Assembly (NCBI GenBank): GCA_021162815.1
Contig: JAGGXW010000003.1
Location: 3,542 to 67,541 of the forward strand
Source of the DNA: Thermoplasmata archaeon
GTDB taxonomy: Archaea; Thermoplasmatota; E2; UBA202; JdFR-43
Direction: 5' to 3'
Length of the DNA: 64,000 bases
A model generated the notes under the pieces. That model made no database searches. It worked only from the letters and a program-made list of their open reading frames with translations, and was not told the DNA's origin. Numbering within the stretch: position 1 is the first letter of the stretch; every line of letters starts with the position of its first letter. Below are positions 8,981-27,314 of this stretch, one piece after another. The translations under genes were made by a program, and so were the position numbers.

Positions 8981-8998
8981 CCTCATGATTTAGTGAGC

Positions 8999-9491: not shown

Positions 9492-9535
9492 TAATGCCAT
9501 GGGGTTATGGATTTGGTAGAGGATGGGGAATGGGA
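9489..9535 (+). repeat. Direct repeat, copy 2
   Basis: See copy 1. Confidence 0.7.
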
Positions 9536-9706: not shown

Positions 9707-9722
9707 GGATAGGGTTTAAGGG

Positions 9723-10229: not shown

Positions 10230-10230
10230 A

Positions 10231-10461: not shown

Positions 10462-11298
10462 ATGATAATAGCTGTTGCAAGCGGAAAGGGGGGCACAGGC
10501 AAAACAACCGTTGCGACAAATCTGGCCATCTCCATAGGAAAAGCCCGCATACTTGATTGCGATGTTGAGGAGCCAAATGCCAACATTTTCCTTAAATTTG
10601 ACATGGAAAAGAAGGAGGATGTGAATGTTCTCATTCCATCCATAGATAAGCAGAAGTGCACACTCTGCGGGGATTGTGTGAATGCATGCAGATATAATGC
10701 CCTCGCAATGTTGCCAAAGGATATTCTTCTTTTTCCAGAGCTTTGCCATGGATGCGGGCTATGCAGCATGGTTTGCAAATATGATGCAATAACCGAGGTG
10801 CCGAGAAAGATAGGTGAGATACTATATGGAAAAAATGAGGAAATAGAACTGTATCAGGGTCTCCTCAACATTGGAGAGGCGATGGCAACACCCATAATAA
10901 AGGAGTTGAAGAAATATTCCAATGATATGACAATAATAGATGCTCCTCCAGGAAATGCATGCCCCACCATGGAGGCGATAATAGATTCAGATTTCGTCAT
11001 TCTTGTTACAGAGCCAACTCCATTTGGCCTTCATGATTTGAAGATTGCTGTAAGCATTGTGAGAAAATTTGGAATACCTTTTGGAGTGATAATAAACAAG
11101 TATGGAATAGGTGATGATGGAGTGGAAAAATACTGCGAGCAGGAGGGGATAAGGATTATGATGAAAATACCCCACAGCAGGGAAATAGCAAATCTTTACT
11201 CCAAGGGCATACCCTTCGTTGAAAAAATGGAGGGATGGAAGGAAAGATTTATTGAGCTTTATGAGGAGATAAAAAATGAAACAGGTGGCAATAGCTAG
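10462..11298 (+). CDS. MinD/ParA-family P-loop ATPase with inserted 2x[4Fe-4S] ferredoxin domain
   Basis: Deviant Walker A SGKGGTGKTT. Two ferredoxin-type Cys clusters (CTLCGDCVNAC and CHGCGLCSMVC) are inserted after the P-loop. Confidence 0.85.
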   Translation: MIIAVASGKGGTGKTTVATNLAISIGKARILDCDVEEPNANIFLKFDMEKKEDVNVLIPSIDKQKCTLCGDCVNACRYNALAMLPKDILLFPELCHGCGLCSMVCKYDAITEVPRKIGEILYGKNEEIELYQGLLNIGEAMATPIIKELKKYSNDMTIIDAPPGNACPTMEAIIDSDFVILVTEPTPFGLHDLKIAVSIVRKFGIPFGVIINKYGIGDDGVEKYCEQEGIRIMMKIPHSREIANLYSKGIPFVEKMEGWKERFIELYEEIKNETGGNS

Positions 11299-12133
11299 TG
11301 GAAAGGGTGGAACAGGAAAGACAACCCTCACTGCATCATTTGCATCTCTGGCAAAAGATAATACTGTATTTGCAGATTGCGATGTGGATGCATCAAATCT
11401 CCATTTAATTTTTGATCCCGTTGTTAAGGAAAAGGAGGATTTCTACGGCATGGAGCTGGCTGTTGTTGACAAGGAGAAATGCATAATGTGCATGGAGTGT
11501 AAGAAGGCATGCAGGTTCGATGCTATAACAGAGAATATTGACATAATAGCGGAGAGATGCGAGGGATGTGGTGTATGCGAATATGTATGCCCCGTCAAGG
11601 CAATAGAAATGAAGCCAAGGAAATCGGGAGAGGTTTTTGTCTCGGAATCAAGATTTGGATGGCTTGTTCATGCAAGGCTCAATATCGGTGAGGAAACAAG
11701 CGGGAAGCTGGTGGCGGCGGTGAGGAATAAAGCCAAAGAGGTGGCAGAGAAGAATGGTAAAGATATGATAATAATAGACGCTCCGCCAGGCGTTGGATGC
11801 CCCGTTATTGCTTCCATAAGTGGCGTTAATCTCGTTGTTATTGTTGTTGAACCCACGTCTGCTGCAATTCATGATATGAAGAGGGTTAAGGAGGTTGCAG
11901 ATCACTTTAAGGTGCCATGTGCTGTGTGCATAAATAAATATGATATAAATGAGGAGAAGGCAAAGGAGATTGAGGAGTATTGCAGGGAGAATGGAATTGA
12001 GATTGTTGGCAAGATTCCCTATGATACAGTTATCACAGATGCGATGGTGAATGGCAAGAGTGTTGTTGAATACAATAAGAAAGTGGCAAATATTATGAAA
12101 GATATATGGATAAATGTCAAAAATAAATTATAA
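11276..12133 (+). CDS. MinD/ParA-family P-loop ATPase with inserted 2x[4Fe-4S] ferredoxin domain (paralog)
   Basis: SGKGGTGKTT with CIMCMECKKAC and CEGCGVCEYVC. Overlaps the upstream gene by 23 nt. Confidence 0.85.
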   Translation: MKQVAIASGKGGTGKTTLTASFASLAKDNTVFADCDVDASNLHLIFDPVVKEKEDFYGMELAVVDKEKCIMCMECKKACRFDAITENIDIIAERCEGCGVCEYVCPVKAIEMKPRKSGEVFVSESRFGWLVHARLNIGEETSGKLVAAVRNKAKEVAEKNGKDMIIIDAPPGVGCPVIASISGVNLVVIVVEPTSAAIHDMKRVKEVADHFKVPCAVCINKYDINEEKAKEIEEYCRENGIEIVGKIPYDTVITDAMVNGKSVVEYNKKVANIMKDIWINVKNKL

Positions 12134-12620
12134 GGTGCTGAAAAGGATAAAGCTCGTGATTACAGTTATTATAATTGCTGGAGTTATAATTGACACCACC
12201 CTTGTTTACATGGCTGCAAGTTCTCTCAAAATAAATGGAGAGAGAATAAACGGAATATATCCTGAAAATGTTGTTAAGGGCTATTATGAGGTTAAATTTG
12301 AGTTGCAGATTGAAAATCCACAGGACAAGAGCATAGAGGTTGATTACATAAGTTACAACGTTTATATAAACAATGAATTTGTGGGAAAGGGAGCAAAACC
12401 TGCTTTTTCAATTCCTCACGGGGTGCATAACTACACATTCAGCTTGACATTCAACATTTACAATCTCTCTTCATCAACTTCTTCCATAATAATGAATCAG
12501 GGAAACGTGGATGTTAAAATTAAAGGGGATGTTATTGTTCCATTGAAATTTCTTGGCTTATTCACATGGAGGTATATAAAATTGCCATATGAGAAGACTG
12601 AGAATGTGAGAATAAAATGA
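12114..12620 (+). CDS. LEA14/WHy-like (LEA-2 family) membrane-anchored protein
   Basis: N-terminal TM helix followed by a beta-rich domain whose pattern (VKGYYEVKFELQIENPQDKSIEVDYISYNVYINN) is typical of LEA-2/NDR1-like folds. Overlaps the upstream gene. Confidence 0.45.
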   Translation: MSKINYKVLKRIKLVITVIIIAGVIIDTTLVYMAASSLKINGERINGIYPENVVKGYYEVKFELQIENPQDKSIEVDYISYNVYINNEFVGKGAKPAFSIPHGVHNYTFSLTFNIYNLSSSTSSIIMNQGNVDVKIKGDVIVPLKFLGLFTWRYIKLPYEKTENVRIK

Positions 12621-13846
12621 AAAAGGAATTGCTCAAAGCAGGATATAAAAGTGCGTTTTATGTTCTCATAGCCACTTTTGCCCTCTCCATATTCAAACTT
12701 GCTGCAGGTATAATCTCAAACACTCTTGTTGTGGTTGTTGATGGTATGCATTCAATGGTTGATATGGTTGTTCTGATGGTGGCATACATTGGAATAAGAA
12801 TATCATGCAAGGAACCTGATAGAAAATTTCAGTATGGGTATTACAAGGCGGAGAGCATAGCCTCTCTTTTCATTTCTTTATTCATTTTTATTGTTGCATT
12901 TAAATTCATGTACGAAGGCTATATGGCTCTTTTTAAAGAGCCTGAGAGCAAAATGCCATATCTTGCAATATTTGCAACAATCGTTTCCATAATCTCCTCA
13001 TATCTCATGTCTGTTTATCTTCTCAAAGCGGGAAAGAAAACAAAGATGCACTCCCTCATAGCCACATCAAATGAAAGAAAAATGGACATGCTTTCCTCCC
13101 TGATTGTCATTATTGCAATAGTGCTTGGTATGTACCACATAAGATATGTTGAGGGGATAATAACCATGGGCATAGCAGCAATAATACTGAAGACAGGCAT
13201 TCTGAGCTTAAGAGATGCCATAGCCTCTCTCATGGATGTGAGCCCGAGAGATGCTGAGGAGAGAGTAAGAAAAATACTGGAAAATGCCAGAATAAGAGGA
13301 TACAAGGATTTAAAGCTTAGAAAGGCAGGGCCCTTCATATTCGGAGAGGTGAAAATTCTGCTCGATGCATCAATGGATATCCAGTCAGCCCATGATATTG
13401 CAGATGAAATTGAAGAAAAGGTAAAGAAAATAGGGAATGTTGATGGTTTCATAACCCATATCGAGCCATATTCTGGAGATGAGGTTAAGATGGCAATACC
13501 TGTGGAGAAAAGAAGCGGTGATGCAAACATAAGCAGAATATTCGGAAGATCCAGATATTTCATGCTCGTTTATATTGATACAAAGAATAAGGGCATAAAG
13601 AAACTATTCTTTGAGGACAATCCCCATCACGCAAAGGAAAAGCACGCTGGATTGGCGGCCGCCAGCATGCTTGCGGAGACGGGCGTGAGGTGCGTGGTGG
13701 TGAATAAGATAGGGGAGATAGCGTATTATGCTTTGAAAAATAAGGGAATCAGGATTTTTGAGTATGATGGCAGGGCTCTGGAGGCTGTGGATGAGTATAT
13801 GAAAGGGAAGCTTAAGGTGTTGAAAGAGCCAAAGAAGGTGGAATGA
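12617..13846 (+). CDS. Cation diffusion facilitator (CDF) metal transporter fused to a C-terminal NifX-like (PF02579-like) domain
   Basis: Six TM helices with the CDF signature (VVDGMHSMVDM, HxxxD sites). These are followed by the usual cytoplasmic CDF C-terminal domain and then an extra ~100 aa (RIFGRSRYFMLVYIDTKNKGIKKLFFEDNP ... LAETGVRCVVVNKIGEIAYYALKNKGIRIFE) matching the NifX-like fold. Confidence 0.8.
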   Translation: MKKELLKAGYKSAFYVLIATFALSIFKLAAGIISNTLVVVVDGMHSMVDMVVLMVAYIGIRISCKEPDRKFQYGYYKAESIASLFISLFIFIVAFKFMYEGYMALFKEPESKMPYLAIFATIVSIISSYLMSVYLLKAGKKTKMHSLIATSNERKMDMLSSLIVIIAIVLGMYHIRYVEGIITMGIAAIILKTGILSLRDAIASLMDVSPRDAEERVRKILENARIRGYKDLKLRKAGPFIFGEVKILLDASMDIQSAHDIADEIEEKVKKIGNVDGFITHIEPYSGDEVKMAIPVEKRSGDANISRIFGRSRYFMLVYIDTKNKGIKKLFFEDNPHHAKEKHAGLAAASMLAETGVRCVVVNKIGEIAYYALKNKGIRIFEYDGRALEAVDEYMKGKLKVLKEPKKVE

Positions 13847-14427
13847 TGTCATATGAGGATTTTTATGCAACGGACTTCGGAAGGTTTGTTCTTATGAATG
13901 AGGCAGGATATGTGGCAAAGAAAATGCACGGTCTGTTGTTAAGTGTTGGATGCGGTACGGGTATAATAGAAAGGGAGATAGCAAAGGAGGGAAATGAAAT
14001 AATATGTCTTGAGCCATCTGAGGAGATGGTAAAGCTTGCCAGGAGCAGGGTTGAGGTGGTGGAGGGTTATGCAGAGAATATGCCTTTCAGAGATGGAATG
14101 TTTGATGGCGTGTTTTTCATAACCTCCCTCGAGTTTGTTAACGATTATAAGAAAGCCATTGAAGAAGCCCACAGGGTTCTCAAGGAAAATGGAGTGTTTC
14201 TTGCCATGATGCTCAATTTCTCATCCGATTACTTTGCAAGAGCCTATGAAAAGGAGGGCTACATAAGAAGAAATATAAAGCACATGAATAATGAAATGAT
14301 AAAGAAGCATGCTGAAGAATTTTTTGATACCCGGCATTCTCTCTTTCTTTGCGAGGATATGGGCAGTGAATGCGATGATAAAAACAAACTTCTTTATGTG
14401 GTGGAGGGAATAAAGCTCTTACCATGA
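13843..14427 (+). CDS. Class I SAM-dependent methyltransferase
   Basis: Motif I LSVGCGTGII and a post-I acidic residue, a Methyltransf_11-like pattern. ATGA overlap with the upstream gene. Confidence 0.75.
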   Translation: MMSYEDFYATDFGRFVLMNEAGYVAKKMHGLLLSVGCGTGIIEREIAKEGNEIICLEPSEEMVKLARSRVEVVEGYAENMPFRDGMFDGVFFITSLEFVNDYKKAIEEAHRVLKENGVFLAMMLNFSSDYFARAYEKEGYIRRNIKHMNNEMIKKHAEEFFDTRHSLFLCEDMGSECDDKNKLLYVVEGIKLLP

Positions 14428-14844
14428 TTTTAACCTTTCCAGAATTATGGAGGGATTTATTTCCAGCACTCCCTCCATGCTCTTTATTTTATCAAGCAAT
14501 CTGTTCATCTCCCTGCTATCCTTTGCCCATATATCGGCCATTATCATATGTCCTCCCGATGTTATCGCCACACATTTAACATTTTCCATCTCCGTAAGCC
14601 TGCATGCGATTTTCAGAAATGCATTTGTATCTGTATTTATGCCCACATGAGCCACTATTTTGTATCCAATTTTTTCAGGATTTATCTTAAGTGTGTATCC
14701 CTCTATTATTCCATTTTCCTCCAGTTTCTTTATTCTCTTCCTCACCGCCGTCTCGGATATACCCAGCCTTCTGGCTATCTTTATGTAAGGCGTCCTTGCA
14801 TTCTTTGAAAGCATTTCCAGTATTATTTCATCCTTTTCGTCCAT
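14419..14844 (-). CDS. Lrp/AsnC-family transcriptional regulator
   Basis: N-terminal HTH (ILEMLSKNARTPYIKIARRLGISETAVRKRIKKLEENGII) and a C-terminal RAM domain. Confidence 0.85.
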   Translation of the reverse strand: MDEKDEIILEMLSKNARTPYIKIARRLGISETAVRKRIKKLEENGIIEGYTLKINPEKIGYKIVAHVGINTDTNAFLKIACRLTEMENVKCVAITSGGHMIMADIWAKDSREMNRLLDKIKSMEGVLEINPSIILERLKSW

Positions 14845-14904
14845 TCTGGTTCGGAATTTAAACCAAATGGTTATATATTCGCTCTTTATAACTCTTCTGA
14901 TATC
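14845..14904. promoter_or_regulatory. Divergent promoter region between the Lrp-family regulator and the Mbx/Mbs-like operon
   Basis: 60-nt AT-rich spacer containing TTATATA-like elements on both strands. Confidence 0.3.
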
Positions 14905-15417
14905 ATGGAGGAGGGAAAATTTGCATATGTCGCAGTAGTTTTAACCATTATATGGATTGCCCTGATATACAGCCCGGGCATATCAATGGAAGCTTTTCTC
15001 CAGGAGTTTATTGCAGGGGTTGTTGTTGCAGTGGCCATAGCTGCCATAACAGCAGGGAATTTTGAGGATGCTGGATTGAGATATTTTCATCCGAGAAGGG
15101 TGGCATATTTCATAGCATTTCTGTTCATATTTCTCATTGAGATGATAAAGGCAAATCTCAACATGGCAAGAATTGTCCTCTCGCCAAAACCTCCTGTGAA
15201 GCCAGGTATAGTTGAGATAGAAACAGAGCTAAAACAGCCATCTGCAAGGCTTTTCCTGGGGAATGCAATAACTCTAACTCCTGGAACAATGACCCTCGAT
15301 TATAAAGATAACAAGGCATATATTCACTGGGTTTATGTTGAAAGCGAAGACAGCAAAAAGGCGGGAGAGATAATAAAGGGAAAGTTTGAGAAATTCCTGA
15401 AGGAGGTGTACTCATGA
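14905..15417 (+). CDS. Mrp antiporter-like subunit E (MbsA/MbxA-like)
   Basis: Hydrophobic N-terminus and the MnhE-type motif ITLTPGTMTLD. Confidence 0.65.
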   Translation: MEEGKFAYVAVVLTIIWIALIYSPGISMEAFLQEFIAGVVVAVAIAAITAGNFEDAGLRYFHPRRVAYFIAFLFIFLIEMIKANLNMARIVLSPKPPVKPGIVEIETELKQPSARLFLGNAITLTPGTMTLDYKDNKAYIHWVYVESEDSKKAGEIIKGKFEKFLKEVYS

Positions 15418-15674
15418 ATCTGTATTTCTTTTATTTGATAATATCAATTCTTGCTCTTGCCATAGCTCTCTCCGCATACAGGCTGATAAAGGGACCAAGC
15501 TCTGCTGACAGGGCTGTGGCTCTTGATGCCCTCACAAACATAACAACGGCTCTTCTTGCATTAATAGCTGTAATTTCCGCAAGATTCATCTATCTTGATG
15601 TCGCCCTTGTTTATGCCATACTTGCTTTCATAGGTGTTATTGCCATAGCAAGATATCTGGAGGGGGGAATATGA
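15414..15674 (+). CDS. Mrp subunit F-like (MbsB-like)
   Basis: 86 aa with the MnhF motif GPSSADRAVALDALTN. ATGA overlap. Confidence 0.65.
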   Translation: MNLYFFYLIISILALAIALSAYRLIKGPSSADRAVALDALTNITTALLALIAVISARFIYLDVALVYAILAFIGVIAIARYLEGGI

Positions 15675-16006
15675 CGGAAATATTGAATTACCTCGGCATG
15701 CTATTTGTTTTCATCGGAGCCCTGTTTTTCCTCTTCGGCTCCATAGGGTTGATAAGAATGCCAGATTTATACAACAGAATGCAGGCATCAACAAAAACCA
15801 CAACATTGGGGGTGCTATCCTTCCTATTTGGCCTGGGTTTGATGGACCTGCAGTGGATGATTAAATTACTTGTAATAGCTCTCTTCATCGTTCTCACAGC
15901 ACCCGTGGGAGCGAGCGCTCTCGCCAGAGCGGCGTACAAGCATGGTATAAAGCTATGGGAAAACAGCGTTGTTGATAAGTATAGGGGAGGTAAGAAAAAT
16001 GATTGA
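15671..16006 (+). CDS. Mrp subunit G-like (MbsC-like)
   Basis: MnhG motif GLIRMPDLYNRMQASTKTTTLG. Confidence 0.7.
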   Translation: MTEILNYLGMLFVFIGALFFLFGSIGLIRMPDLYNRMQASTKTTTLGVLSFLFGLGLMDLQWMIKLLVIALFIVLTAPVGASALARAAYKHGIKLWENSVVDKYRGGKKND

Positions 16007-16247
16007 GTTCACCATAATGGCATGGATACTTGCATTGCTGGCTGCTGCAGCCGCCATATATGCTGTTGAGACAAAAGATTTGATTTCATCTGCCATAGCA
16101 ATGGGGGTTGCAAGCCTGGTTGTATCAATAATGTTTCTTCTGCTTCAGGCTCCAGATGTGGCGATAACGGAGGCTAGTATAGGGGCTGGAATTACAATGG
16201 CCGTGTTTGTGTATGCAATAGGAAAGACAGGGAGGTGGGAAGAATGA
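15969..16247 (+). CDS. MrpB N-terminal-domain-like small membrane subunit (DUF4040/MbhD-like)
   Basis: Two or three TM helices containing APDVAITEASIGAGI. Confidence 0.55.
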   Translation: MLISIGEVRKMIEFTIMAWILALLAAAAAIYAVETKDLISSAIAMGVASLVVSIMFLLLQAPDVAITEASIGAGITMAVFVYAIGKTGRWEE

Positions 16248-16969
16248 GAAAGCTGGCAGGAATTGTCATAGCAGGAATATTCTTCATTTCAATGATGATG
16301 CTATTTTACCACCTTCCAGCCTCTCATGACTTATCTTCAAATGAGTATTATTACAGGAATCCAATAAATGGAAGCGTTGCCAACGAAAGCATTCCGGAGC
16401 ATTATATAAAATATACAAAGAATGAGACAGGAGCTGTCAATGCAGTTACAGCAATAGTTGTTGAGTACAGAGGTTTTGATACCCTTGGAGAGGTGACGGT
16501 TCTATTCACGGCAGCAACAGGTGTTTCCTTTTTACTTTCCCTTGCCGTGAGAGGAAGGAAAAGGGAGGAAGCAAATCTCATTCTTAAAGAGGGTTCAAAA
16601 CTTGTTCTTCCATTCATACTGCTTACTGGTGCATACATATTCATTCATGGGCATTTAACACCAGGAGGAGGATTTCCAGGAGGGAGTGTTGTTGCCTCTG
16701 GTTTCCTACTCATGATGCTTGCCTATCCGAAGTTCTTCATGAAGGATAGAATATCATGGTTTGAAAGCGCCGCAGGCACCGCATTTGTTGTTATTGGATT
16801 ACTCGGCCTTGTTCTTGCCACCTCATTTCTGCAGAATTTCATTCCTGTTGGCACGCCGGGACAGCTTGTAAGTGCTGGAATAATTCCTCTCATCTACATA
16901 GCCATAGGATTTAAAGTTGGCTCTGAGTTGAGTGCAATAGTTAATAAAATGAAGGAGGTGCAGGGATGA
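16235..16969 (+). CDS. MrpB-like membrane subunit (MbhE-like)
   Basis: MnhB-domain motif NAVTAIVVEYRGFDTLGEVTVLF. Confidence 0.65.
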   Translation: MGRMRKLAGIVIAGIFFISMMMLFYHLPASHDLSSNEYYYRNPINGSVANESIPEHYIKYTKNETGAVNAVTAIVVEYRGFDTLGEVTVLFTAATGVSFLLSLAVRGRKREEANLILKEGSKLVLPFILLTGAYIFIHGHLTPGGGFPGGSVVASGFLLMMLAYPKFFMKDRISWFESAAGTAFVVIGLLGLVLATSFLQNFIPVGTPGQLVSAGIIPLIYIAIGFKVGSELSAIVNKMKEVQG

Positions 16970-17298
16970 TATGGGCAATGTATTTTGCGGTTGCAGTGCT
17001 TCTGACAGCAGGACTTTATGGGGTAATAACAAAGAAGAATCTGATGAAGGTGTTCATTTCACTTTCAATAATGGAGACAGGAGTAAATCTCCTGCTCATA
17101 ACCATAGGCTATATACCTGGAGGAACGGCTCCAATTGAGAATGGTAACTTTGCGAAATATGTTGATCCAGTTCCTCAGGCTCTCGTTCTCACAGCCATAG
17201 TCATAGGTGTTTCCGTTACGGCCCTTGCATTATCACTTCTCATAATGTATCATTCAAAGGCAGGAACACTAGAATATAAGGAGGGGATGAAATGGTAA
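16966..17298 (+). CDS. MrpC/NuoK-like membrane subunit
   Basis: 110 aa with three TM helices and a NuoK/MnhC-like pattern (LSIMETGVNLLLITIGY). Confidence 0.65.
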   Translation: MIWAMYFAVAVLLTAGLYGVITKKNLMKVFISLSIMETGVNLLLITIGYIPGGTAPIENGNFAKYVDPVPQALVLTAIVIGVSVTALALSLLIMYHSKAGTLEYKEGMKW

Positions 17299-18644
17299 TG
17301 CATCCTGTATTGCTTATAGCCATTCCATTGCTTGTTGCCTTCATTATACCACTCTTCAAAAAATATGGTCCCAGCATAGCTCTTGGTGCCCTTGCTCTGA
17401 ATACCGGCATATCCATAGCTTTATTCTCTGTTGTCTACTCCACAGGAACAGTTCATGAAATCATAGCAGGATTTGCTCCTCCCATAGGCATATTTCTTGC
17501 AGTCGACAGTCTCTCTGCCCTCCTTGCAATGATAATCAATTTATTTGCTCTGATAAACTTCATGGCGATAGGGAAGGCAAGCGAATACAAATTTTCAATG
17601 CTTTACCTTCTCGCAGTCGCTGGCTCCACGGGAATAGTGATAACGGGAGACATATTCAACATGTTTGTATTCTTTGAGATAACTGCAGTTGCTTCCTATG
17701 CTCTTGTGGCATCCAGAAAGGATAAGAAGTCAATGGAGGGAGCCATAAAATACATGATTCTCGGCTCTCTGGGCTCAATATTCATACTCATCGGTATAGC
17801 CCTAATATACAGCCAGCTTAAGAGCCTGAATATATATGATATAGCAAGCAGAATCTCAACAATGGATGCAAAAATAAAGTGGGCATCCGTTGCCATGCTG
17901 CTTACAGGAATAGGTGTGGAGGCGGAGATATTCCCTCTCAATGGATGGGTTCCGGATGCATATCAGGGTGCTTCTGGTGGTGTTGCATCTCTCCTTTCTT
18001 TTGGACCTTCGAAGGCAGCCATATATGCAATAGCGAGAATAATGCTTGTGATATTTCCTCTTCAGAAGGTTTATTACCTTGTGCTTACCATTGGAGTTAT
18101 CACCCTGCTGATAGGTGAGCTGGCTGCTCTGAAGCAGGAGAATGTTAAAAGAATGCTGGCATACTCCTCCATAGGACAGATGGGGCTTATAACAATAGCC
18201 ATAGCCATGGGCATGAATGAGAAGAATGCAATACTGGCAATATTCTTTTTAATGGTGAGCCATGCATCATCGAAAGCATCTCTCTTCTTGCTTTCCGACT
18301 CCAGTGGAATGGGAAGCGCGGCGACCAAATATACTGGCATTGTCTCTGTGCTGGGCATTGTTGGAATGCCTCCATTTGCCGGATTCTGGGGCAAATGGTA
18401 TCTTTTGATGGCTGCCATAAATGGTAATATGCTCTGGGTGATAGTACTCATATTCTTCTCCGGCATAGTTGAGGCAGCATACTTTGCAAGATATCTGCAC
18501 AGATATTATGGCAATGAGGAGAGTTTCTCGAGGCTTACAAAATACTCAATGGCAGTGCTTGCCACAATGAGCCTGATATTTGGATTACTCCCGCTAATAT
18601 ATGAAATGGGTTTAAAAACACTATTTGGAATGGGAGGTGTGTGA
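17292..18644 (+). CDS. MrpD/NuoN-like antiporter-type membrane subunit (MbsH-like)
   Basis: 450 aa, polytopic, with the NuoL/M/N-family proton-pumping fold pattern. Confidence 0.75.
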   Translation: MVMHPVLLIAIPLLVAFIIPLFKKYGPSIALGALALNTGISIALFSVVYSTGTVHEIIAGFAPPIGIFLAVDSLSALLAMIINLFALINFMAIGKASEYKFSMLYLLAVAGSTGIVITGDIFNMFVFFEITAVASYALVASRKDKKSMEGAIKYMILGSLGSIFILIGIALIYSQLKSLNIYDIASRISTMDAKIKWASVAMLLTGIGVEAEIFPLNGWVPDAYQGASGGVASLLSFGPSKAAIYAIARIMLVIFPLQKVYYLVLTIGVITLLIGELAALKQENVKRMLAYSSIGQMGLITIAIAMGMNEKNAILAIFFLMVSHASSKASLFLLSDSSGMGSAATKYTGIVSVLGIVGMPPFAGFWGKWYLLMAAINGNMLWVIVLIFFSGIVEAAYFARYLHRYYGNEESFSRLTKYSMAVLATMSLIFGLLPLIYEMGLKTLFGMGGV

Positions 18645-20475
18645 AATGCTTGATATAATACTTGCCGAAATACTGGTGGCTGCCATAATAACATTTTTTG
18701 TGGGGAGAAAGTTAGCAGCCATTATAGCCATGGCCGTTTCAATTCTCCCTTTAATCGCTCTGCTTGACTGGGCATCTCTGTATGGGTTTAATATCATACA
18801 TCTTGGAATTGAAAAAAGCATTTCCATACCAATTGCTGGCGTTTCGCTGAATCTCGCCATAACTCCCTTAGGATGGTTCTTTGCTCTGATGATTATTCCA
18901 TTATTCCCGGCAATAATGCTTTTTTCCTACTCCTTCTACAAGAAAAATGATGGTTTCTATCCATTTATGCTGCTTGCACTTCTCTCCAGCATAGGCATAA
19001 TAATGGCAAAGGACATGCTCACATTCTTTTTATTCTGGGAGATGATGTCATGGTCGTCCTTCCTTCTCGTTTACAGAAGCCGGGATAAGGAGGCGGTGAT
19101 GAGTTATTTCATATTCTCTTCTCTCTCAGCATTTCTGATATTCCTGGGCATACTCATAATATATCAGCAGAACGCCTCTCTCCTCCTTTCAAGTATAAAC
19201 ATTGAGAGCAATGCCTATGGAGTTGTTGCAATCATTTCACTCATTGCAGGGTTTGCAATAAAAAGCGTTCTCATGCCACTGCATGCATGGGCACCCTATG
19301 TTTACTCTAAGTCAGATGAACCATTTGTTGCTTTTCTTGCAGGAGGCCTGAGCAAACTTGGCTATTACGGAATGTTTCTCATTCTTTTCATTCTTGCAGG
19401 AGCAAAGGTTCTTGAAACTTACTTTACAAATCTCTCTCCAAATTACATTCTGGCTGTGTTCGGCGCTTTATCTGCGTTCATAGCAACTTTAATAGCCTTC
19501 ATGCAGGATGATATGAGGAAGCTTCTGGCTTACTCCTCCATAGGTCAGCTTGGATACATAGCCATTGGATTTGGAATAGGCACTCCTCTGGCAGTATCTG
19601 GAGCATTATTCCAGGCATTCAATCATGCTTTCTTCAAGGCTGTGCTTTTCCTGGCTGCTGGGGCTGTGGCATATCGCACAGGCAAGTGGAAGATAAGTGA
19701 GCTTGGAGGAGTTGGATACAGAATGCCTTTCACATTCATGGCTACCTTATTTGCCATATTTACTCTCGCTGCAATACCTATAACCAGTGGATTTGCAGCA
19801 AAATGGTTGCTTTATGAATCTGCCATAGATGCCAAATACATATTTGTGGCTCCAATCATGCTCATAGCAGGTGTGGGAGCATTTCTCTATTCTTTTAGAA
19901 TACTGTATGGCGTCTTTCTCGGAGAGAACCGTTATCCCAACATAAAGGAGGCGCCAAAGAGCATGGTTGCAGCAATGTTCATTCTTGTCATGCCTCTCCT
20001 GATATTTCTCATCTTTCCTGGCTACATGCTTGATATGATGCATGATGCACTCATATCGGGCAATATAGCCACGCTGAATCATAACGCGTTTGTCATAGAA
20101 ACATCTCTTGCATCCTACAACACCATTGCTGTGATAGTGGCATTGATGATTGCCCTCATTCCAGCCATACTCATATATAAGACGAGAAAGCATAGAGTTG
20201 TTGATTTCATGGATAATTATCTTGCTGGAGAGCTTCCAGAGCTATATGATAATAAGATATCAATGCATGCAGCAAGCAGGTTCTACAAGCCCATAGAGGA
20301 GATAATAGGGCCGTATTTTGAGCCAGGAACAATGAGTTACTATATGGCTATCTATAGAGGTCTTAAAGCAATATCAGATGCTGTAAGGAAGATTTATACT
20401 GGTAAGGCGGGTGATTATGCAATATATGTCACTCTCTTCCTTCTCATAATAATGGGGTGGTTTATATGGATGTGA
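18625..20475 (+). CDS. MrpA/D / NuoL-like antiporter-type membrane subunit (MbsH-prime-like)
   Basis: 616 aa, polytopic, second antiporter-like paralog. Overlaps both neighbouring genes. Confidence 0.75.
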   Translation: MEWEVCEMLDIILAEILVAAIITFFVGRKLAAIIAMAVSILPLIALLDWASLYGFNIIHLGIEKSISIPIAGVSLNLAITPLGWFFALMIIPLFPAIMLFSYSFYKKNDGFYPFMLLALLSSIGIIMAKDMLTFFLFWEMMSWSSFLLVYRSRDKEAVMSYFIFSSLSAFLIFLGILIIYQQNASLLLSSINIESNAYGVVAIISLIAGFAIKSVLMPLHAWAPYVYSKSDEPFVAFLAGGLSKLGYYGMFLILFILAGAKVLETYFTNLSPNYILAVFGALSAFIATLIAFMQDDMRKLLAYSSIGQLGYIAIGFGIGTPLAVSGALFQAFNHAFFKAVLFLAAGAVAYRTGKWKISELGGVGYRMPFTFMATLFAIFTLAAIPITSGFAAKWLLYESAIDAKYIFVAPIMLIAGVGAFLYSFRILYGVFLGENRYPNIKEAPKSMVAAMFILVMPLLIFLIFPGYMLDMMHDALISGNIATLNHNAFVIETSLASYNTIAVIVALMIALIPAILIYKTRKHRVVDFMDNYLAGELPELYDNKISMHAASRFYKPIEEIIGPYFEPGTMSYYMAIYRGLKAISDAVRKIYTGKAGDYAIYVTLFLLIIMGWFIWM

Positions 20476-21422
20476 GCGCAATTATGATAAAATCTGCGGT
20501 TGTGATTGCATACGCTTTCATAGGAACATTTATTGGCTTGCTCTTCCTCGGTGTAGGAAGAAAAATTGTTGCAAGGGTGCATAATAGAGTTGGCCCTCCA
20601 TTCTATCAGGGTTTCATAGATGTTGCAAAACTGCTGAGTAAAAAAACCAACATAAGTCATGGATGGATATTTGACCTCGCTTTATTATTCTCCATATCCG
20701 GCATACTGCTTGCATTTGCATTCCTTCCTGTTGGAGGGATAAAGCTTCTCAGCACGGATGGTGATGCATTCCTTGTTCTTTATCTTCTTGCCATCCCTGC
20801 TCTGGGCTTTGCGCTGGGTGCAGGGGCTTCAGGTAATCCAAATGCCGGGATAGGGGTTATGAGGGCTCTTGTCATGATGCTTTCCTATGAACTGCCATTT
20901 GTGATAACCATGATAGCCCTTATGATATATTATGATACAACCTCCATAGCAAGAATTGTTGAATTGCAGAGTGTGAACGGAATAAGCAGCTGGGCAATAT
21001 TCATACCACCTTTCATGCTTGCAGCCGCAGTTGCTGACATGGCTCTTCAGGGTATGCTGATGGAGCAGCCATTTGATATTCCAGTAGCTCCTCATGAGAT
21101 AGCATCTGGCCCGATGGTGGAATTCGGTGGGAAGTATCTTGGAACTTTAATGCTTTACAAGGCCATAAGCATTGTTGTGGAGACAACGCTTTTTGTTGAC
21201 TTCTTCCTTGGAGGGGGTGTAATAATGCATGGTGGCATCGTTGCCAACATAGCAAATTTCATTGTCTGGTTTGTGCTCATATTTATTGTATTCACCCTCT
21301 CCCTGCTCATAAACACTGCATTTCCACGCTTCAGAATAGAGCAGGCTTTCACATTTTACTGGAAGTATGAGGCAATACTTGCAACAGTTGCCTTAATATG
21401 GGTTTACTGGATGGTGATATAA
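20457..21422 (+). CDS. NuoH-like membrane subunit (MbsM-like)
   Basis: NuoH signature region RVHNRVGPPFYQGFIDVAKLL. Confidence 0.75.
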   Translation: MVYMDVSAIMIKSAVVIAYAFIGTFIGLLFLGVGRKIVARVHNRVGPPFYQGFIDVAKLLSKKTNISHGWIFDLALLFSISGILLAFAFLPVGGIKLLSTDGDAFLVLYLLAIPALGFALGAGASGNPNAGIGVMRALVMMLSYELPFVITMIALMIYYDTTSIARIVELQSVNGISSWAIFIPPFMLAAAVADMALQGMLMEQPFDIPVAPHEIASGPMVEFGGKYLGTLMLYKAISIVVETTLFVDFFLGGGVIMHGGIVANIANFIVWFVLIFIVFTLSLLINTAFPRFRIEQAFTFYWKYEAILATVALIWVYWMVI

Positions 21423-21423
21423 A

Positions 21424-21975
21424 ATGATGAGATATGAAGAATGGAGTGGAATAGCCAGGAAGGCAAGCAAGCGTTCATTGTGGATGGTTCATTTCTGCAC
21501 AGGGTGCGGAGCAATTGAGATGCCACCTGTTATGACATCCCGCTATGACATGGAAAGATTCGGCATAGCTTCCATGGCTACGCCCCGCCAGGCTGATGTT
21601 TTGCTCATAACCGGCTATCTCACCGTTAAAACATTAAAGAGAGTTGTACAGGTGTATGAGCAGATGCAGTCTCCAAAATATGTAATAGCCCTTGGCTCAT
21701 GTACCATGAATGGAGGTATGTACTGGGATTCATACAACACCATAAAAAGGCTGGATAAGTACATTCCTGTGGATATATATGTGGCGGGTTGCATGCCCAG
21801 GCCAGAAGGGATAATGAATGCATTCCTGAAATTAATGAAGCTCATCGATGAGGGAAAAGCCAGAGGATGGGAGAGATATAAAAAATATTATGAGAGGTAC
21901 AAGAAAAACCAGGAGATGGCATTCAATTTTGTGAAGAAGGAAGAAAAAGAGGAGGAGAAAAATGAAGGCGATTGA
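21424..21975 (+). CDS. NuoB-like [4Fe-4S] small subunit (MbsJ-like)
   Basis: Four-Cys pattern FCTGCG ... GSCTMNGG ... GCMPRP, typical of NuoB and the small subunits of group-4 hydrogenases. Confidence 0.8.
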   Translation: MMRYEEWSGIARKASKRSLWMVHFCTGCGAIEMPPVMTSRYDMERFGIASMATPRQADVLLITGYLTVKTLKRVVQVYEQMQSPKYVIALGSCTMNGGMYWDSYNTIKRLDKYIPVDIYVAGCMPRPEGIMNAFLKLMKLIDEGKARGWERYKKYYERYKKNQEMAFNFVKKEEKEEEKNEGD

Positions 21976-22432
21976 ACTGCTTGGAAAAGGGGAAGAGATG
22001 AATGGCAGGGCTTATGTGAAGATTGATAAAAGCGAGCTGGAAGAGGCGATTAAAACACTCAAGGAAAATGGTTACAATCATTTTGTCATGCTTTCATGTA
22101 TAGACTGGCTTGATGATGGAGAGTTTGAGTTAGTTTATCATCTATGGAGTTATGAGGAGAGAGAGCATGTTATGTTATCTGTTAGGGTGGCAAGAGATGG
22201 AGAGAGCATGCCATCCATGCATGAACTTTTCCCCCAAATAGAAACCTATGAGAGAGAGATACATGAAATGTATGGAATCAAATTTGAGGGCAATCCCAGA
22301 CTTACGCCTTTCTTCTTAGAGGGGTGGCGTGATATGCCCCCCATGAGGAAGGATTTTGATTCAAGAAAGTTCACCAAGGATGTGTTTGGAAACATATCCA
22401 CCATAGAGGAGGAAGAAGATGAAGGAATATGA
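21962..22432 (+). CDS. NuoC-like subunit (MbsK-like)
   Basis: 156 aa with the NuoC/30-kDa subunit pattern. Overlaps its neighbours. Confidence 0.7.
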   Translation: MKAIELLGKGEEMNGRAYVKIDKSELEEAIKTLKENGYNHFVMLSCIDWLDDGEFELVYHLWSYEEREHVMLSVRVARDGESMPSMHELFPQIETYEREIHEMYGIKFEGNPRLTPFFLEGWRDMPPMRKDFDSRKFTKDVFGNISTIEEEEDEGI

Positions 22433-23546
22433 ATTGTTTATAGGTCCGCAGCATCCTGGAATAACAGGAAACATGATGTATCATTTATGGGCAGAGGGAG
22501 ATACTGTTGTGAAGGCAGAGTGCAATGTCGGCTATCTCCACCGCGGATTTGAGAAATTGATGGAATCCCGTCTATGGATGCAGAATATCCCGCTTGTATG
22601 CAGAATATGCGTCCCCGAGCCAGATGTAAATGAAGCAGCATATTCTATGGCTGTTGAACAACTCATGGACTGGGAGGTGCCTGAGAGGGCAAGGTACATA
22701 AGAACCATTGTTCTGGAACTGGCGAGAATATCTGCATATCTCATGGCAATAGGGGGATATGCTGGCAGTATAGGAATTTACACACTCCCGCAGTGGATGA
22801 CAGGGGATAGAGATTACATACTTGACATATTTGAACAACTCACAGGGGCAAGAGTGTATCATATTTACATATGGCCTGGTGGTGTAAGATGGGATATGCC
22901 GGACAATTTGCCAGGTTTAATAGAAAGAACACTCAATTATATTGAGAAGAGGCTTGAACTTTATGATGATGTTCTTTTCAGAAACAGGATTTTCTTTGAT
23001 AGAGCCGTTGGCATTGGGAAAATTCCAAAAGAAAAGGCAATAGAATGGGGAGTTAGCGGTCCAAATCTGAGGGCATGTGGCTATGGATATGATGTGAGGA
23101 AACTCGAGCCTTATGCAGCTTATGATGAAATTGATTTTGATGTGGTTAAATATCCAGAACTCGGTAAATTTGAAGCTTTGTCAGATGGATGTGATGTGTA
23201 TACCAGAATGATAATAAGGAGACTTGAAATAGAGCAGAGCATAGACATAGTAAGGCAGGCCCTCAAAAAAATGCCTGAAGGGGATATCCTGCTCAAACAT
23301 CCAAACTGGCTGCGCTGGAAGGTGCCGGCAGGCTACGCATTTGCCAGAGTGGAGAGCAGCAAGGGAGAGTATGGTTATTTTGTTGTGAGTGATGGTGGTT
23401 TGAAACCTGTGAGGGTTCATGTTAGGGGCCCGAGCTATACGCATGGAATTAATGTTGCTGAAAGAATATTGAAGGGGGCAAATATAGCGGATGTATCCCA
23501 GATATTGTTCAGCCTTGATATTTGTCCACCGGATATAGAGAGGTGA
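22419..23546 (+). CDS. NuoD-like large subunit lacking the complete [NiFe] ligand set (Mbx/Mbs-L-like, not a hydrogenase)
   Basis: LHRGFEKL and an N-terminal CxxC (VCRIC) are present. The C-terminus ends DICPPDIER, with a single Cys where [NiFe] hydrogenases have DPCxxCxxH. Confidence 0.8.
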   Translation: MKEYELFIGPQHPGITGNMMYHLWAEGDTVVKAECNVGYLHRGFEKLMESRLWMQNIPLVCRICVPEPDVNEAAYSMAVEQLMDWEVPERARYIRTIVLELARISAYLMAIGGYAGSIGIYTLPQWMTGDRDYILDIFEQLTGARVYHIYIWPGGVRWDMPDNLPGLIERTLNYIEKRLELYDDVLFRNRIFFDRAVGIGKIPKEKAIEWGVSGPNLRACGYGYDVRKLEPYAAYDEIDFDVVKYPELGKFEALSDGCDVYTRMIIRRLEIEQSIDIVRQALKKMPEGDILLKHPNWLRWKVPAGYAFARVESSKGEYGYFVVSDGGLKPVRVHVRGPSYTHGINVAERILKGANIADVSQILFSLDICPPDIER

Positions 23547-23549
23547 AAA

Positions 23550-24038
23550 ATGAGCGTGTTAAAGCCTTTAAAGGCATGGAAACATCTTGCAAGAAAGCCG
23601 CACACCATAAGGTATCCGAAGGAAGAGCATACGGACATGGATGGAAATAAATTACCTACGGACAGGCTGAGGGGATTCCATTCAAATGATCTGAGCAGAT
23701 GCATAGGATGCAAGCTGTGCGGCAGTATATGCATGAACGGTGCTATAACATATGAAGAAATACCTGAACTTAAGGGAAAAGAGGGCGTTAAGGGAATAAA
23801 CATCCGCCCTGTCATAGATTATGGAAGGTGCTGCTTCTGCGGTTTATGCACCGATATATGTCCGACCAAATCTCTGAAACTCACACCCAATTACAAACTC
23901 ATAAGCACGGACATAAATGACTTCAAGTTCATGCCAACCCAGCTTGTGGAAAAGAATGAAAATTTCGAAATGGACCTGAATGCAGTGATGTTCAGCGCAA
24001 AGGAGTATGCAGAAAAATTTGAGAAGGAAGAAGACTAA
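23550..24038 (+). CDS. NuoI-like 2x[4Fe-4S] ferredoxin subunit (MbsN-like)
   Basis: CIGCKLCGSIC and CCFCGLCTDICP motifs. Confidence 0.8.
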   Translation: MSVLKPLKAWKHLARKPHTIRYPKEEHTDMDGNKLPTDRLRGFHSNDLSRCIGCKLCGSICMNGAITYEEIPELKGKEGVKGINIRPVIDYGRCCFCGLCTDICPTKSLKLTPNYKLISTDINDFKFMPTQLVEKNENFEMDLNAVMFSAKEYAEKFEKEED

Positions 24039-24900: not shown

Positions 24901-25557
24901 TCATCTGGATTGTTCGAGTAATTCCTTTATAGTTTTCTGTTTCTCCTCCGAAAGCTTTTTCATTCCATTTCTTAACATGTATGCGATATTTCTATCACTT
25001 TCCTCCGCCCATTTTTTAAGAATATGAAAAACAGATTCTTCATCCTTCTTTGTTATCTCTCTCAGAGCCCATGCAACGGCTTTTTTCACATCCATGCTCT
25101 CATCTTTCATAAGGCCATCAAGCAGATCAAGACATTTCCTGCTTTCCTCTTTCCTTGTTATTATATATGCTGGCAATGTTGCTGCTGCCAGCCTCCTCCT
25201 CCTCCACACATTTTTGGAATTGGTTTCTTTCTTCAGCATTGAAAAAATTTCATTCTCATCTATCAACGCGAGATTTGATACAACTCTCAACGCCATCTGA
25301 TCGCATATCTCCCAATCAGATATATCATCCATCGTATCCAGAGCAAATTTCTTTACCTTTCCATACTCTGCCCTGCTCAATTTTTGAAGTGCAGCAATGA
25401 CAATCAGCCTTCCTTCTCTTCCTCCTCTCTTCCACAGCTCCATCATTGCCTTCTCATTCCATCCTTTTTTTGCAGAAAGTTTTCCGACCTCATTGCCTAT
25501 GGAGTTCAGCATGGTTGTTTTTGTCAATTTCATCTTGCCTGTCTTTTCCTGCCTCAC
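24901..25557 (-). CDS. DNA alkylation repair protein (AlkC/AlkD-like HEAT-repeat glycosylase family)
   Basis: 218 aa, helical-repeat protein with a pattern that resembles the DNA_alkylation family (NVWRRRRLAAATL ... VKKAVAWALRE). Confidence 0.6.
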   Translation of the reverse strand: MRQEKTGKMKLTKTTMLNSIGNEVGKLSAKKGWNEKAMMELWKRGGREGRLIVIAALQKLSRAEYGKVKKFALDTMDDISDWEICDQMALRVVSNLALIDENEIFSMLKKETNSKNVWRRRRLAAATLPAYIITRKEESRKCLDLLDGLMKDESMDVKKAVAWALREITKKDEESVFHILKKWAEESDRNIAYMLRNGMKKLSEEKQKTIKELLEQSR

Positions 25558-26139: not shown

Positions 26140-27314
26140 TCGAATTTATCCTTTGTTATTATTCTTATTTCTGCAGGAAGCTTTGCCACCTCTCCCATGG
26201 TTGTTGCCACTATTTCCTTTACTCCATTCTCAAAGGCTGTGTCCACAAGGCGCTGTGTTATGACGCCATCAAAAACGATGGTGTGGGGCTTGCTTTTTTC
26301 AATGTTTTCAACCAGTTTGGCAGTTTCCACCCTCGAAATTTCGTTGCCTTCTTCATCAATCAGCACTGCAGTGTGATTTCCCTTAACAGAATCGTATATT
26401 CGCTTTATTTTCTCCATCTCGTCATCCAGTTCCTTTTTCTTCATTCCCATGCTTTCCATGTACTGCTCGGCAGGAATCTTGTTTTTCAGTGCCTTCATCA
26501 CAAGCTTGTATGGTAGCTCTTCAACTTCCCTTGTTGGAGGCGCTCTTGCAACAAAATCAATGTCAGCCACCTGAAGAAGCTCTCTCAAAACAAGTTCTCC
26601 CCCTCTGTCTCCATCAACAAAGGCTGTGGCTATCTTTTCATTGCACAGCTCTATGATTGTTTTGGGTATGTTTGTTCCCTCCACCGCTATTGCATTCTTT
26701 ATTCCATGCCTGAGAAGATTGACAACATCATTTCTTCCTTCCACAACTATTATGGCATCGCTTTTATCCACATTTGGTCCTGCTGGAAGATGTTCTGGGC
26801 CATAGTATGTTATCTCCTCCACCTGCACGGACTGCCGTATCTCATCCGCAAGATTCGGCATCTCCTCCTTGCCCTGCTTTATCATGTCCGCAAGAATCTG
26901 CTTTGCCCTCTCCACAAGTTTCTTTCTCTTTGCAACTCTTATATCCTCAACCTTCTCGACCTTTATCTCAGCCTTGCATGGTCCTATTCTGTCAACACTC
27001 TCTATTCCTGCTGCAATTATTGCAGTTTCCACCTTTTCTAAGGCGGAGGTTAGTGTTAAGCTCCCCTCGCTCTTTCCCTTGTTTGTCTTGAGTTCAACCT
27101 CTATTCTTCCTATCCTTGCAGATTTCTGAAGATCTCTTAAATCGAGCTCCTCTCCCATCAAACCTTCTGTCTGCCCGAAAAGAGCCCCTATAACATCGCT
27201 CTTATCAACTACTCCATCCACCTTTATTTTAGCCTTTATCAAATATTTTGCCGCTGAAGGATCCAATGACAATGATATCACCTCTTTTAAACCAAATGCC
27301 TTAATCACAAACAT
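26136..27314 (-). CDS. dnaG: Archaeal DnaG-type primase (Toprim domain)
   Basis: Toprim signature AIAVEGTN ... FVDGDRGGELV plus the N-terminal domain typical of archaeal DnaG. Confidence 0.85.
   Translation of the reverse strand: MFVIKAFGLKEVISLSLDPSAAKYLIKAKIKVDGVVDKSDVIGALFGQTEGLMGEELDLRDLQKSARIGRIEVELKTNKGKSEGSLTLTSALEKVETAIIAAGIESVDRIGPCKAEIKVEKVEDIRVAKRKKLVERAKQILADMIKQGKEEMPNLADEIRQSVQVEEITYYGPEHLPAGPNVDKSDAIIVVEGRNDVVNLLRHGIKNAIAVEGTNIPKTIIELCNEKIATAFVDGDRGGELVLRELLQVADIDFVARAPPTREVEELPYKLVMKALKNKIPAEQYMESMGMKKKELDDEMEKIKRIYDSVKGNHTAVLIDEEGNEISRVETAKLVENIEKSKPHTIVFDGVITQRLVDTAFENGVKEIVATTMGEVAKLPAEIRIITKDKFE

Follow-up and report, generated by a model that had tools for sequence, protein, structure and literature searches.

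In Pyrococcus furiosus, the membrane-bound reductase for sulfane sulfur (MBS, formerly called Mbx) has a large subunit, MbsL, that retains only C85 and C385 of the four cysteines ligating the [NiFe] site of hydrogenases, and C85A/C385A mutants of the enzyme stay active (PMC7684303). The proximal [4Fe-4S] cluster in its MbsJ subunit is held by C28, C93 and C123, C25 being too far away in a Cys loop that is 3 residues shorter than in hydrogenases, and the complex lacks both the quinone ligands of Nqo4 (H38/Y87) and the proton-reduction residue of MbhL (E21) (PMC7684303). Mbx-like complexes beyond the Thermococcales, along with their vestigial cysteines, have already been reported (PMC4758237; PMC6349859). 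Here we describe an operon of 13 genes and a divergent regulator gene in a 64,000-nucleotide stretch of DNA from a Thermoplasmata archaeon (contig JAGGXW010000003.1 of assembly GCA_021162815.1, positions 3,542 to 67,541). This whole 64-kb stretch is referred to as the window, and all coordinates are given within it. The operon very likely encodes a complex of the already known MBS/Mbx type in another host, and we put at about 0.72 the probability that the complex is an MBS orthologue that oxidizes ferredoxin, pumps ions and reduces polysulfide.

Gene order and family assignment

The operon consists of 13 consecutive plus-strand open reading frames (ORFs) between 14905 and 24038, adjoined across a gap of 60 bp by a divergent ORF (14419-14844) for a 141-aa protein of the Lrp/AsnC family. 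By Pfam family, the genes run in the order MNHE, MrpF, MnhG, MbhD/DUF4040, MnhB with MbhE, a NuoK-like gene, two Proton_antipo_M genes (450 and 616 aa), NuoH, NuoB, NuoC, NuoD (375 aa) and a NuoI-like gene; they are named below after the subunits of MBS. Successive genes either overlap by 4-38 nt or are separated by gaps of 1-3 nt, and the larger overlaps drop to 4-10 nt if the start codons of the closest relative, locus L029, are applied to MbsD, MbsE, MbsH' and MbsM (Table 1). The MbsD counterpart in L029 is called as an 82-aa gene. Since the downstream neighbour is a convergent gene for a bPH_2 membrane protein, the operon ends at 24038. The initial annotation of this stretch, made from the letters and their ORFs, had described a tightly packed 13-gene order with two antiporter-like subunits and a divergent Lrp-family gene, and the ORFs, Pfam families and gene junctions bear this out.

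All PDB chains were searched with each of the 13 proteins. For all 13, the top solved-structure match was the cognate chain of P. furiosus MBS (6U8Y), which each time scored above its counterpart in the P. furiosus membrane-bound hydrogenase (MBH; 6CFW). For example, MbsL reached 391 bits and 53% identity with 6u8y_L, as against ~230 bits with NuoD, 144 bits with MbhL and 114 bits with HycE. The corresponding scores were 240 bits for MbsJ (NdhK 134, MbhJ 114), 252 bits for MbsH (MbhH 151) and 245 bits for MbsM (MbhM 101). When 1.84 billion cluster representatives were searched exhaustively with HMMER, 9110 relatives of the large subunit were returned, and 154 relatives were aligned with references (MAFFT) for a neighbour-joining tree. 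Among the aligned sequences, 23 have all four [NiFe] cysteines, 27 have two and 104 have other residues at these positions, most being of the NuoD type. The large subunit of the window shares with MbsL a clade of 13 members, all of which have two cysteines. The smallest clade holding both remained small, and without MbhL, in 50 of the 50 bootstrap replicates; the precise set of its members is less stable, recurring in 11 of the 50. The Mbx/Mbs-like identity proposed by the initial annotation, for which a phylogeny had been suggested as a check, is upheld by the structure matches, by this tree, which sets the large subunit with MbsL and apart from MbhL, and by the motifs described below.

The large subunit also matches the NCBIfam model for NuoD (NF004739, 432 bits, cutoff 360), and its close homologues are publicly named 'NADH-quinone oxidoreductase subunit D'. 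Because the cutoff is passed, automated annotation will mislabel an MBS-type complex as complex I. This match, the NuoD name given by models of the PGAP style, and the rank of NuoD structures as the second-best PDB class (~230 bits) could be taken to indicate a quinone or phenazine reductase of the complex I/Fpo kind, lacking the NADH module. We consider such an enzyme highly improbable, given that His38 and Tyr87 of Nqo4 are replaced by Thr16 and Val65, that MbsJ carries CxxC and not the tandem CC of NuoB, that the operon includes a complete Mrp Na+/H+ module, and that the membrane subunits match MBS chains far above complex I chains.

The remaining hallmarks of MBS were examined subunit by subunit. 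MbsJ aligns with its P. furiosus namesake without gaps (12-168 to 12-168), with Cys25, 28, 93 and 123 identically numbered and a Cys loop 3 residues shorter than in E. coli HycG, which suggests a proximal cluster with one iron free of a Cys ligand. In MbsL, Gly17 stands at the position of Glu21 of MbhL. Glu210 of MbsH corresponds to E219 of the P. furiosus subunit, in transmembrane helix (TMH) 7, where MbhH has a Lys, and lies inside the conserved motif VEAE(I/L)FPLN. The charged axis named in P. furiosus comprises E138, E219, K250, H330 and K393 of MbsH and E128, K217, K248, H336 and K399 of MbsH' (PMC7684303). Four of the five residues are kept in each subunit, namely E129, E210, K241 and the TMH12 Lys K368 in MbsH and, in MbsH', E139, K213, K244 and K393, which match E128, K217, K248 and K399; the two histidines are taken up below. 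MbsH' is aligned over residues 11-611 of its 616 aa with residues 6-615 of the 618 aa of 6u8y_X, and by this alignment the C-terminal TMH15-16 and the lateral helix HL appear to be present.

MbsN has two CxxCxxCxxxC(P) motifs with eight cysteines in all, and its best NCBIfam match is to the N-terminal part of a 611-aa fusion model of the NuoI-GltD type. The match to part of such a model would favour a role as a ferredoxin:NAD(P)+ oxidoreductase regenerating NADPH for a cytoplasmic sulfur reductase, an older hypothesis on Mbx that dates from before 2018 and still recurs in comparative papers (PMC4758237; PMC6349859). For the present operon this role seems very unlikely: at 162 aa, MbsN is the two-cluster ferredoxin domain alone, the operon encodes no GltD/flavin or nucleotide-binding domain, and direct reduction of sulfane sulfur has been shown for the P. 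furiosus enzyme (PMC7684303).

Cysteines of the large subunit

The large subunit of the window contains the motif VCRIC and terminates in DICPPDIER. The initial annotation had concluded that the N-terminal CxxC is kept and the C-terminal pair is lost. Both motifs are present as described, but the CxxC had been placed in the wrong register, and C369 of the C-terminal pair is in fact retained. The register is based on transitive HMMER alignments (window to Nqo4, together with HycE to Nqo4 and MbhL) and on MAFFT alignments of 124 and 154 sequences. In alignments with MbhL (6CFW), E. coli HycE, Nqo4 and MbsL, R62-I63-C64 falls on R-(M/V)-C of the RxCGxC motif, so that C64 occupies the first [NiFe] ligand position and Glu67 the second. 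C61 is an extra cysteine, three residues ahead of the RxCGxC motif, at a position that holds Glu or Asp in hydrogenases and Leu in P. furiosus MbsL. An assignment of VCRIC as the hydrogenase CxxC, by which three of the four [NiFe] cysteines would be kept, was rejected, since in three independent alignments it is C64, and not C61, that occupies the first ligand position. The C-terminal D-I-C369-P-P-D372 is aligned with D-P-C-x-x-C and has retained the first Cys, while Asp372 replaces the second. The protein keeps two of the four ligands, in the same pattern, C-E-C-D, as P. furiosus MbsL, and with Glu67 and Asp372 at two ligand positions the earlier claim that the canonical four-Cys [NiFe] site is absent holds.

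The homology of the large subunit to MbhL (144 bits) and HycE (114 bits), and the weak precomputed matches of a few close homologues to PF00374, might raise the suspicion of a true H2-evolving [NiFe] hydrogenase of the Mbh type, with ligands masked by a sequencing error or frameshift. At the sequence level, this explanation is already refuted. Glu67 and Asp372 replace the ligands inside well-aligned, uninterrupted motifs, and Glu or Asp is found at the two lost positions in 22 related loci and, among the 120 closest homologues, in 119, the remaining one being truncated at the N-terminal motif. The C-terminus, C-P-P-D-I-E-R followed by the stop codon, is likewise common to 22 related loci and 119 of the 120 homologues and has the layout of the solved MbsL, which terminates at the same residue. 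A frameshift or sequencing artefact can be excluded because of this conservation and the match to the solved protein, and the C-terminal Cys pair that the initial annotation had thought might reappear after frameshift correction does not do so. In addition, the proton-transfer Glu21 is absent, and among the ORFs of the 64-kb window there is no hyp or protease gene, nor one for SurR or NSR.

The extra Cys61 (codons 22599-22610 together with Cys64) forms a C-x-x-C with the vestigial C64, and 95 of the 120 closest homologues have it. It is found in the Thermoplasmata clade of the window, one DHVE2 metagenome-assembled genome (MAG), Ignavibacteriales, Melioribacteraceae, Bacteroidota and WOR-3, while Pro takes its place in Aciduliprofundum and Caldisericaceae, and P. 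furiosus has Leu there.

The same MBS architecture and ion pumping could also serve another acceptor, such as an organic or protein persulfide or disulfide, a sulfane derived from thiosulfate, or an Fe(III)-linked carrier, for which the CxxC of C61/C64 and C369 might be used. The absence of Cys61 from P. furiosus, as against its presence in most homologues, among them Thermoplasmata, Ignavibacteriales and WOR-3 loci, would favour such an acceptor, as would the identity of only 53% to MbsL. Cultured Aciduliprofundum, moreover, reduces Fe(III) as well as S0. All catalytic hallmarks assigned to polysulfide reduction in MBS, however, are conserved, including the three-Cys geometry of MbsJ and the chamber-forming subunits, and Cys61 is dispensable in close relatives, since Aciduliprofundum and Caldisericaceae have Pro, and Pyrococcus Leu, at its position. 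The activity of the C85A/C385A mutants of P. furiosus MBS (PMC7684303) also counts against another acceptor. We regard a different acceptor as possible but unlikely, and polysulfide as the preferred one.

More doubtful still is a bolder proposal, in which a pocket with C61-x-x-C64 and C369 beside the free-iron proximal [4Fe-4S] cluster would give this lineage and most MBS-type enzymes outside the Thermococcales a chemistry or range of acceptors different from that of the P. furiosus enzyme, which reduces sulfur at the cluster alone, and in which an LrpA-type protein, not SurR, would act as the lineage's switch for sulfur respiration. A three-Cys pocket of this kind would resemble the sites of ferredoxin:thioredoxin reductase or heterodisulfide reductase, where a cluster is combined with a redox-active disulfide.

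The divergent regulator and the intergenic region

The regulator is a protein of 141 aa with an N-terminal helix-turn-helix (HTH) domain of the AsnC type and a C-terminal RAM domain. Its best PDB match, over the full length, is P. furiosus LrpA (1I1G, 153 bits), the next structure scoring 75 bits. Against the NCBIfam equivalog model for LrpA (NF040820) it scores 166 bits, below the cutoff of 250, and it is accordingly described here as LrpA-like and not as a demonstrated orthologue. The gene lies divergently at the same position in all ten loci from the window's clade whose sequence extends upstream of the operon (L001-L007, L010, L011 and L029), with protein identities of 56-74% across nine compared loci.

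In the 10-locus alignment, the 60-bp intergenic region is much more conserved than the flanking proteins. Its core, AAACCAAATGGTTATATAT (14860-14878), is invariant and unique in the window, and includes a TATA-like element, TTATATAT, that is invariant in the 10 loci and lies 30 bp 5' of the ATG of the operon. From this spacing, TTATATAT may be a promoter element giving rise to a near-leaderless transcript.

For FL10, the P. horikoshii orthologue of LrpA, the optimum determined by SELEX, in which ligands are evolved systematically by exponential enrichment, is GGTTCGA[AAT/ATT]TCGAACC (PMC2715240). The 17-bp box GGTTCGGAATTTAAACC is the sole match in 64 kb to the FL10/LrpA optimum GGTTCGA[W3]TCGAACC at ≤3 mismatches. 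As a candidate operator, it fits the abcdeW3e'd'c'b'a' form and would lie in the regulator's own control region. Its outer GTT/AAAC and A/T centre are conserved in the 10 orthologous intergenic regions, and the left half-site is exactly GGTTCGA in L001, L002 and L005. The composite element occurs once in each of the 10 lrp-mbx loci and in none of 20 other fetched loci. A second LrpA box overlapping the TATA-like element (14869-14885) was considered and rejected, the right arm not being conserved among the loci.

LrpA of P. furiosus acts as a repressor of its own promoter, to which it binds immediately downstream of the TATA box (PMC2995911). The box described here sits between the TATA-like element and the start codon of the regulator, with the same geometry as in the lrpA promoter. 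Because it is located just upstream of the position of the transcription factor B recognition element (BRE) and TATA box of the operon promoter, either activation or repression of the operon is conceivable. In the Thermococcales the sulfur response is associated with SurR, whose site has the consensus GTTn3AACn5GTT, and this consensus has zero matches in the whole 64-kb window.

Two points tell against regulation by this protein. The box has 3 mismatches to the SELEX optimum, and an equal match is found somewhere in 64 kb in 21% of shuffles, so that the weight given to it comes from position and conservation, not from match quality. Furthermore, the Aciduliprofundum loci carry the operon without lrp upstream. 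Control by an Lrp-family protein, which the initial annotation had called possible, gains support from the conserved synteny and the operator-like box within the window's own lineage only, where expression of the operon is probably linked to the LrpA-type protein encoded divergently from it.

Upstream of the Aciduliprofundum operons, no other regulator was found, the genes there being those for arginyl-tRNA synthetase, ribosomal proteins and RNA polymerase and a short conserved ORF. The last is divergent and stands upstream of the first operon gene (L013, 1970-2200, minus strand; L015, 1940-2203, minus strand), and its translations share 93% identity across 45 aa. This ORF has no Pfam match and, in L015, the sole locus scanned, no Rfam match, and could be either a small conserved protein or an unannotated RNA.

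Proposed mechanism, surroundings and relation to known systems

For the preferred assignment, a polysulfide-reducing MBS orthologue, we infer the electron donor, the acceptor and the ion coupling as follows. Reduced ferredoxin would give electrons to the two [4Fe-4S] clusters of MbsN, from which they would reach MbsJ and its proximal [4Fe-4S] cluster. Owing to the shortened Cys loop, this cluster would be held by three cysteines with one iron left free, and the free iron may cleave the S-S bond of polysulfide in a hydrophobic chamber of MbsL, MbsJ and MbsM. The energy would be conveyed by the loop cluster and the charged axis to the two proton-pumping subunits, MbsH and MbsH', and the Mrp-like Na+/H+ exchange module (MbsA-G) would yield an ion gradient for ATP synthesis. 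MbsL has no [NiFe] site, C64 and C369 being two vestigial ligands whose equivalents in P. furiosus are dispensable. The LrpA-type regulator would bind the 17-bp box, which lies between the regulator's start codon and the shared TATA region, and would repress itself in the manner of P. furiosus LrpA.

Our confidence is held at 0.72 because the acceptor is assigned by homology to a single assayed enzyme, whose large subunit is 53% identical, though membership in the family is very likely. Other features of the proteins also weigh against a simple equation with the P. furiosus enzyme. The extra Cys61 lies beside the vestigial site and is absent in P. furiosus, so that the chemistry of the pocket could differ. 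H330 of MbsH is replaced by Leu320 (18249-18251) and H336 of MbsH' by Gln330 (19612-19614), a His four residues downstream being kept in both. Finally, MbsN has 162 aa, compared with 208 aa in P. furiosus, and aligns with it over part of its length only.

Table 1. Regulator, intergenic elements and genes of the MBS-type locus, in window coordinates
Feature	Position	Strand	Pfam	Best PDB match	Remarks
LrpA-like Lrp/AsnC regulator (feast/famine regulatory protein, FFRP), 141 aa	14419-14844	-	HTH_AsnC-type, AsnC_trans_reg		
Candidate LrpA-type operator, 17-bp box GGTTCGGAATTTAAACC	14848-14864	no strand			FL10/LrpA SELEX-like; conserved
TATA-box-like element TTATATAT	14871-14878	no strand			~30 bp 5' of the first gene's ATG; part of core AAACCAAATGGTTATATAT
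MbsA (MrpE-like)	14905-15417	+	MNHE	6u8y_A, 113 bits	
MbsB (MrpF-like)	15414-15674	+	MrpF_PhaF	6u8y_B, 71 bits	
MbsC (MrpG-like)	15671-16006	+	PhaG_MnhG_YufB	6u8y_C, 105 bits	
MbsD (MbhD/DUF4040)	15969-16247	+	MbhD	6u8y_D, 61 bits	Likely true start ATG 15999
MbsE (MrpB-like)	16235-16969	+	MnhB, MbhE	6u8y_E, 174 bits	Likely start 16244
MbsG (MrpC/NuoK-like)	16966-17298	+	Oxidored_q2	6u8y_G, 104 bits	
MbsH	17292-18644	+		6u8y_H, 252 bits	Antiporter-like, predicted proton-pump subunit
MbsH'	18625-20475	+		6u8y_X, 253 bits	Second antiporter-like subunit, predicted C-terminal lateral-helix extension; likely start ATG 18646
MbsM (NuoH-like)	20457-21422	+	NADHdh	6u8y_M, 245 bits	Membrane anchor; likely start 20466
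MbsJ (NuoB-like)	21424-21975	+		6u8y_J, 240 bits	Predicted carrier of the proximal [4Fe-4S] cluster
MbsK (NuoC-like)	21962-22432	+	Complex1_30kDa	6u8y_K, 89 bits	
MbsL (NuoD/[NiFe] large-subunit homologue)	22419-23546	+		6u8y_L, 391 bits	Vestigial C64 and C369, extra C61
MbsN (NuoI-like)	23550-24038	+	Fer4/Fer4_7	6u8y_N, 73 bits	Presumed ferredoxin entry

The operon belongs to an uncultured hydrothermal archaeon of the Thermoplasmata, a relative of DHVE2/Aciduliprofundum. The closest large subunits, with 83-91% identity, come from Thermoplasmata MAGs of hydrothermal sediments, followed by those of DHVE2/Aciduliprofundum MAGs (71-73%) and of Ignavibacteriales, Melioribacteraceae, WOR-3, Bacteroidota and Caldisericaceae (55-59%). 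The identical 13-gene order was found in all 16 loci whose sequence is long enough, which belong to Thermoplasmata, DHVE2/Aciduliprofundum, Ignavibacteriales, WOR-3 and Caldisericaceae. A literature search of limited coverage gave no explicit description of Mbx/MBS in DHVE2/Aciduliprofundum or Thermoplasmata, and a first description in the lineage can therefore not be asserted. A 225-kb contig labelled 'uncultured Synergistota bacterium' (L016, CAZLJD010000030.1) carries a DHVE2/Aciduliprofundum-like 13-gene operon at 2409-11567, with a large subunit 72% identical to that of the window and the Aciduliprofundum-type Pro at position 61. This reflects either misbinning or transfer from an archaeon to a bacterium.

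Just upstream of the regulator, a plus-strand run of genes for Fe-S and metal handling (9305-13846) encodes a DUF5320 protein, a NifX-like protein (Nitro_FeMo-Co), two P-loop ATPases of the MinD/ParA type, each with a 2x[4Fe-4S] insert, an LEA_2 protein, and a fusion of a cation-efflux (CDF) transporter with a NifX-like domain. In the closest relative, L029, the order LEA_2, CDF-NifX, methyltransferase, lrp, operon is retained, and the run may possibly supply iron or clusters to the complex.

Two stretches of the window are absent from L029, where DnaG is followed directly by a LuxE-like gene. These are 24901-25557, with an AlkD-like gene, and ~27300-34400, a segment of ~7 kb encoding a GT4 glycosyltransferase, three radical-SAM enzymes (one B12-binding and one SPASM) and a TrmB-type regulator; they look like a lineage-specific insertion or island. 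A single ORF at 8027-8968 fuses the DNA-binding domain of 6-O-methylguanine-DNA methyltransferase to endonuclease V. A bifunctional methyltransferase-endonuclease V fusion of the same sort is known from Ferroplasma, in keeping with a host among the Thermoplasmata. Otherwise the window holds ordinary housekeeping genes of archaea, including aIF5B, XPD, SRP54, ribosomal proteins L5 and S4e, and DnaG. Some sizeable ORFs, of 180, 462, 257, 450 and 344 aa (1696-4398, 43491-44843 and 54441-55475), have no Pfam family at E ≤ 1e-5, and Rfam and tRNA scans of the window returned only one tRNA-Arg, which is irrelevant to the operon.

These results place a complete complex of the MBS type in an uncultured hydrothermal Thermoplasmata lineage related to DHVE2, which fits the sulfur-reducing, peptide-fermenting lifestyle of cultured Aciduliprofundum. 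They should also aid the metabolic reconstruction of such MAGs, in which the genes are automatically named 'NADH-quinone oxidoreductase'. Because the 13-gene operon is spread over several bacterial phyla, the P. furiosus structure is a usable template far beyond the Thermococcales. The conserved LrpA-type gene and its candidate operator offer a hypothesis for regulation where SurR sites are absent. This regulatory association is modestly new, while the complex itself is of a known kind and leaves the picture of the family unchanged.

The regulator has the same length, 141 aa, as P. furiosus LrpA and P. horikoshii FL10 (1I1G), an autorepressing FFRP. The box resembles the FL10 optimum in its GGTTCG(A/G) half-site and A/T centre and departs from it in a degenerate right half-site (TTAAACC in place of TCGAACC). 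No adjacency of lrpA to mbs is described for Pyrococcus.

As for the complex, complex I and Fpo differ from it in the tandem CC of NuoB, in the His/Tyr of NuoD and in having no Mrp Na+ module, whereas the window has the full MrpE/F/G/B/C set. Mrp antiporters (6Z16, 7QRU, 7D3U) are homologous in MbsA-G and MbsH/H', which correspond to MrpE, F, G, B, C, D and A, but they have no redox arm, and the window's genes match their chains more weakly than those of MBS. P. furiosus MBH, a ferredoxin-dependent, Na+-coupled enzyme, likewise combines an Mrp-type membrane module with an arm of the NuoH/B/C/D/I type. It differs in that it has the complete set of four [NiFe] cysteines as well as Glu21, and in its 14 genes with only one antiporter-like subunit, and the subunits of the window score 1.2-2.7 times lower against its chains than against those of MBS.

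Among the bacterial Mbx-like/Ehr systems, the Ignavibacteriales, WOR-3 and Caldisericaceae loci have all 13 genes in the same order and a two-Cys large subunit, with identities of 33-72% depending on the subunit. In the Mbx-like complexes of the Thermotoga type, NuoI is replaced by a GltD-type flavoprotein fusion (PMC4758237), unlike in the window. The P. furiosus MBS is set apart by its Thermococcales host, the window's host being a member of the Thermoplasmata with an adjoining LrpA-type gene and no SurR motif; it is set apart also by a large subunit 53% identical to that of the window and without the extra Cys61, by a longer MbsN and by His330 and His336, which are replaced here. The two nevertheless share 13 subunits in the order A, B, C, D, E, G, H, H', M, J, K, L, N, an absence of quinone and proton-reduction residues, two vestigial cysteines in MbsL, four cysteines and a short loop in MbsJ, the TMH7 Glu in MbsH, and a full-length MbsH'.

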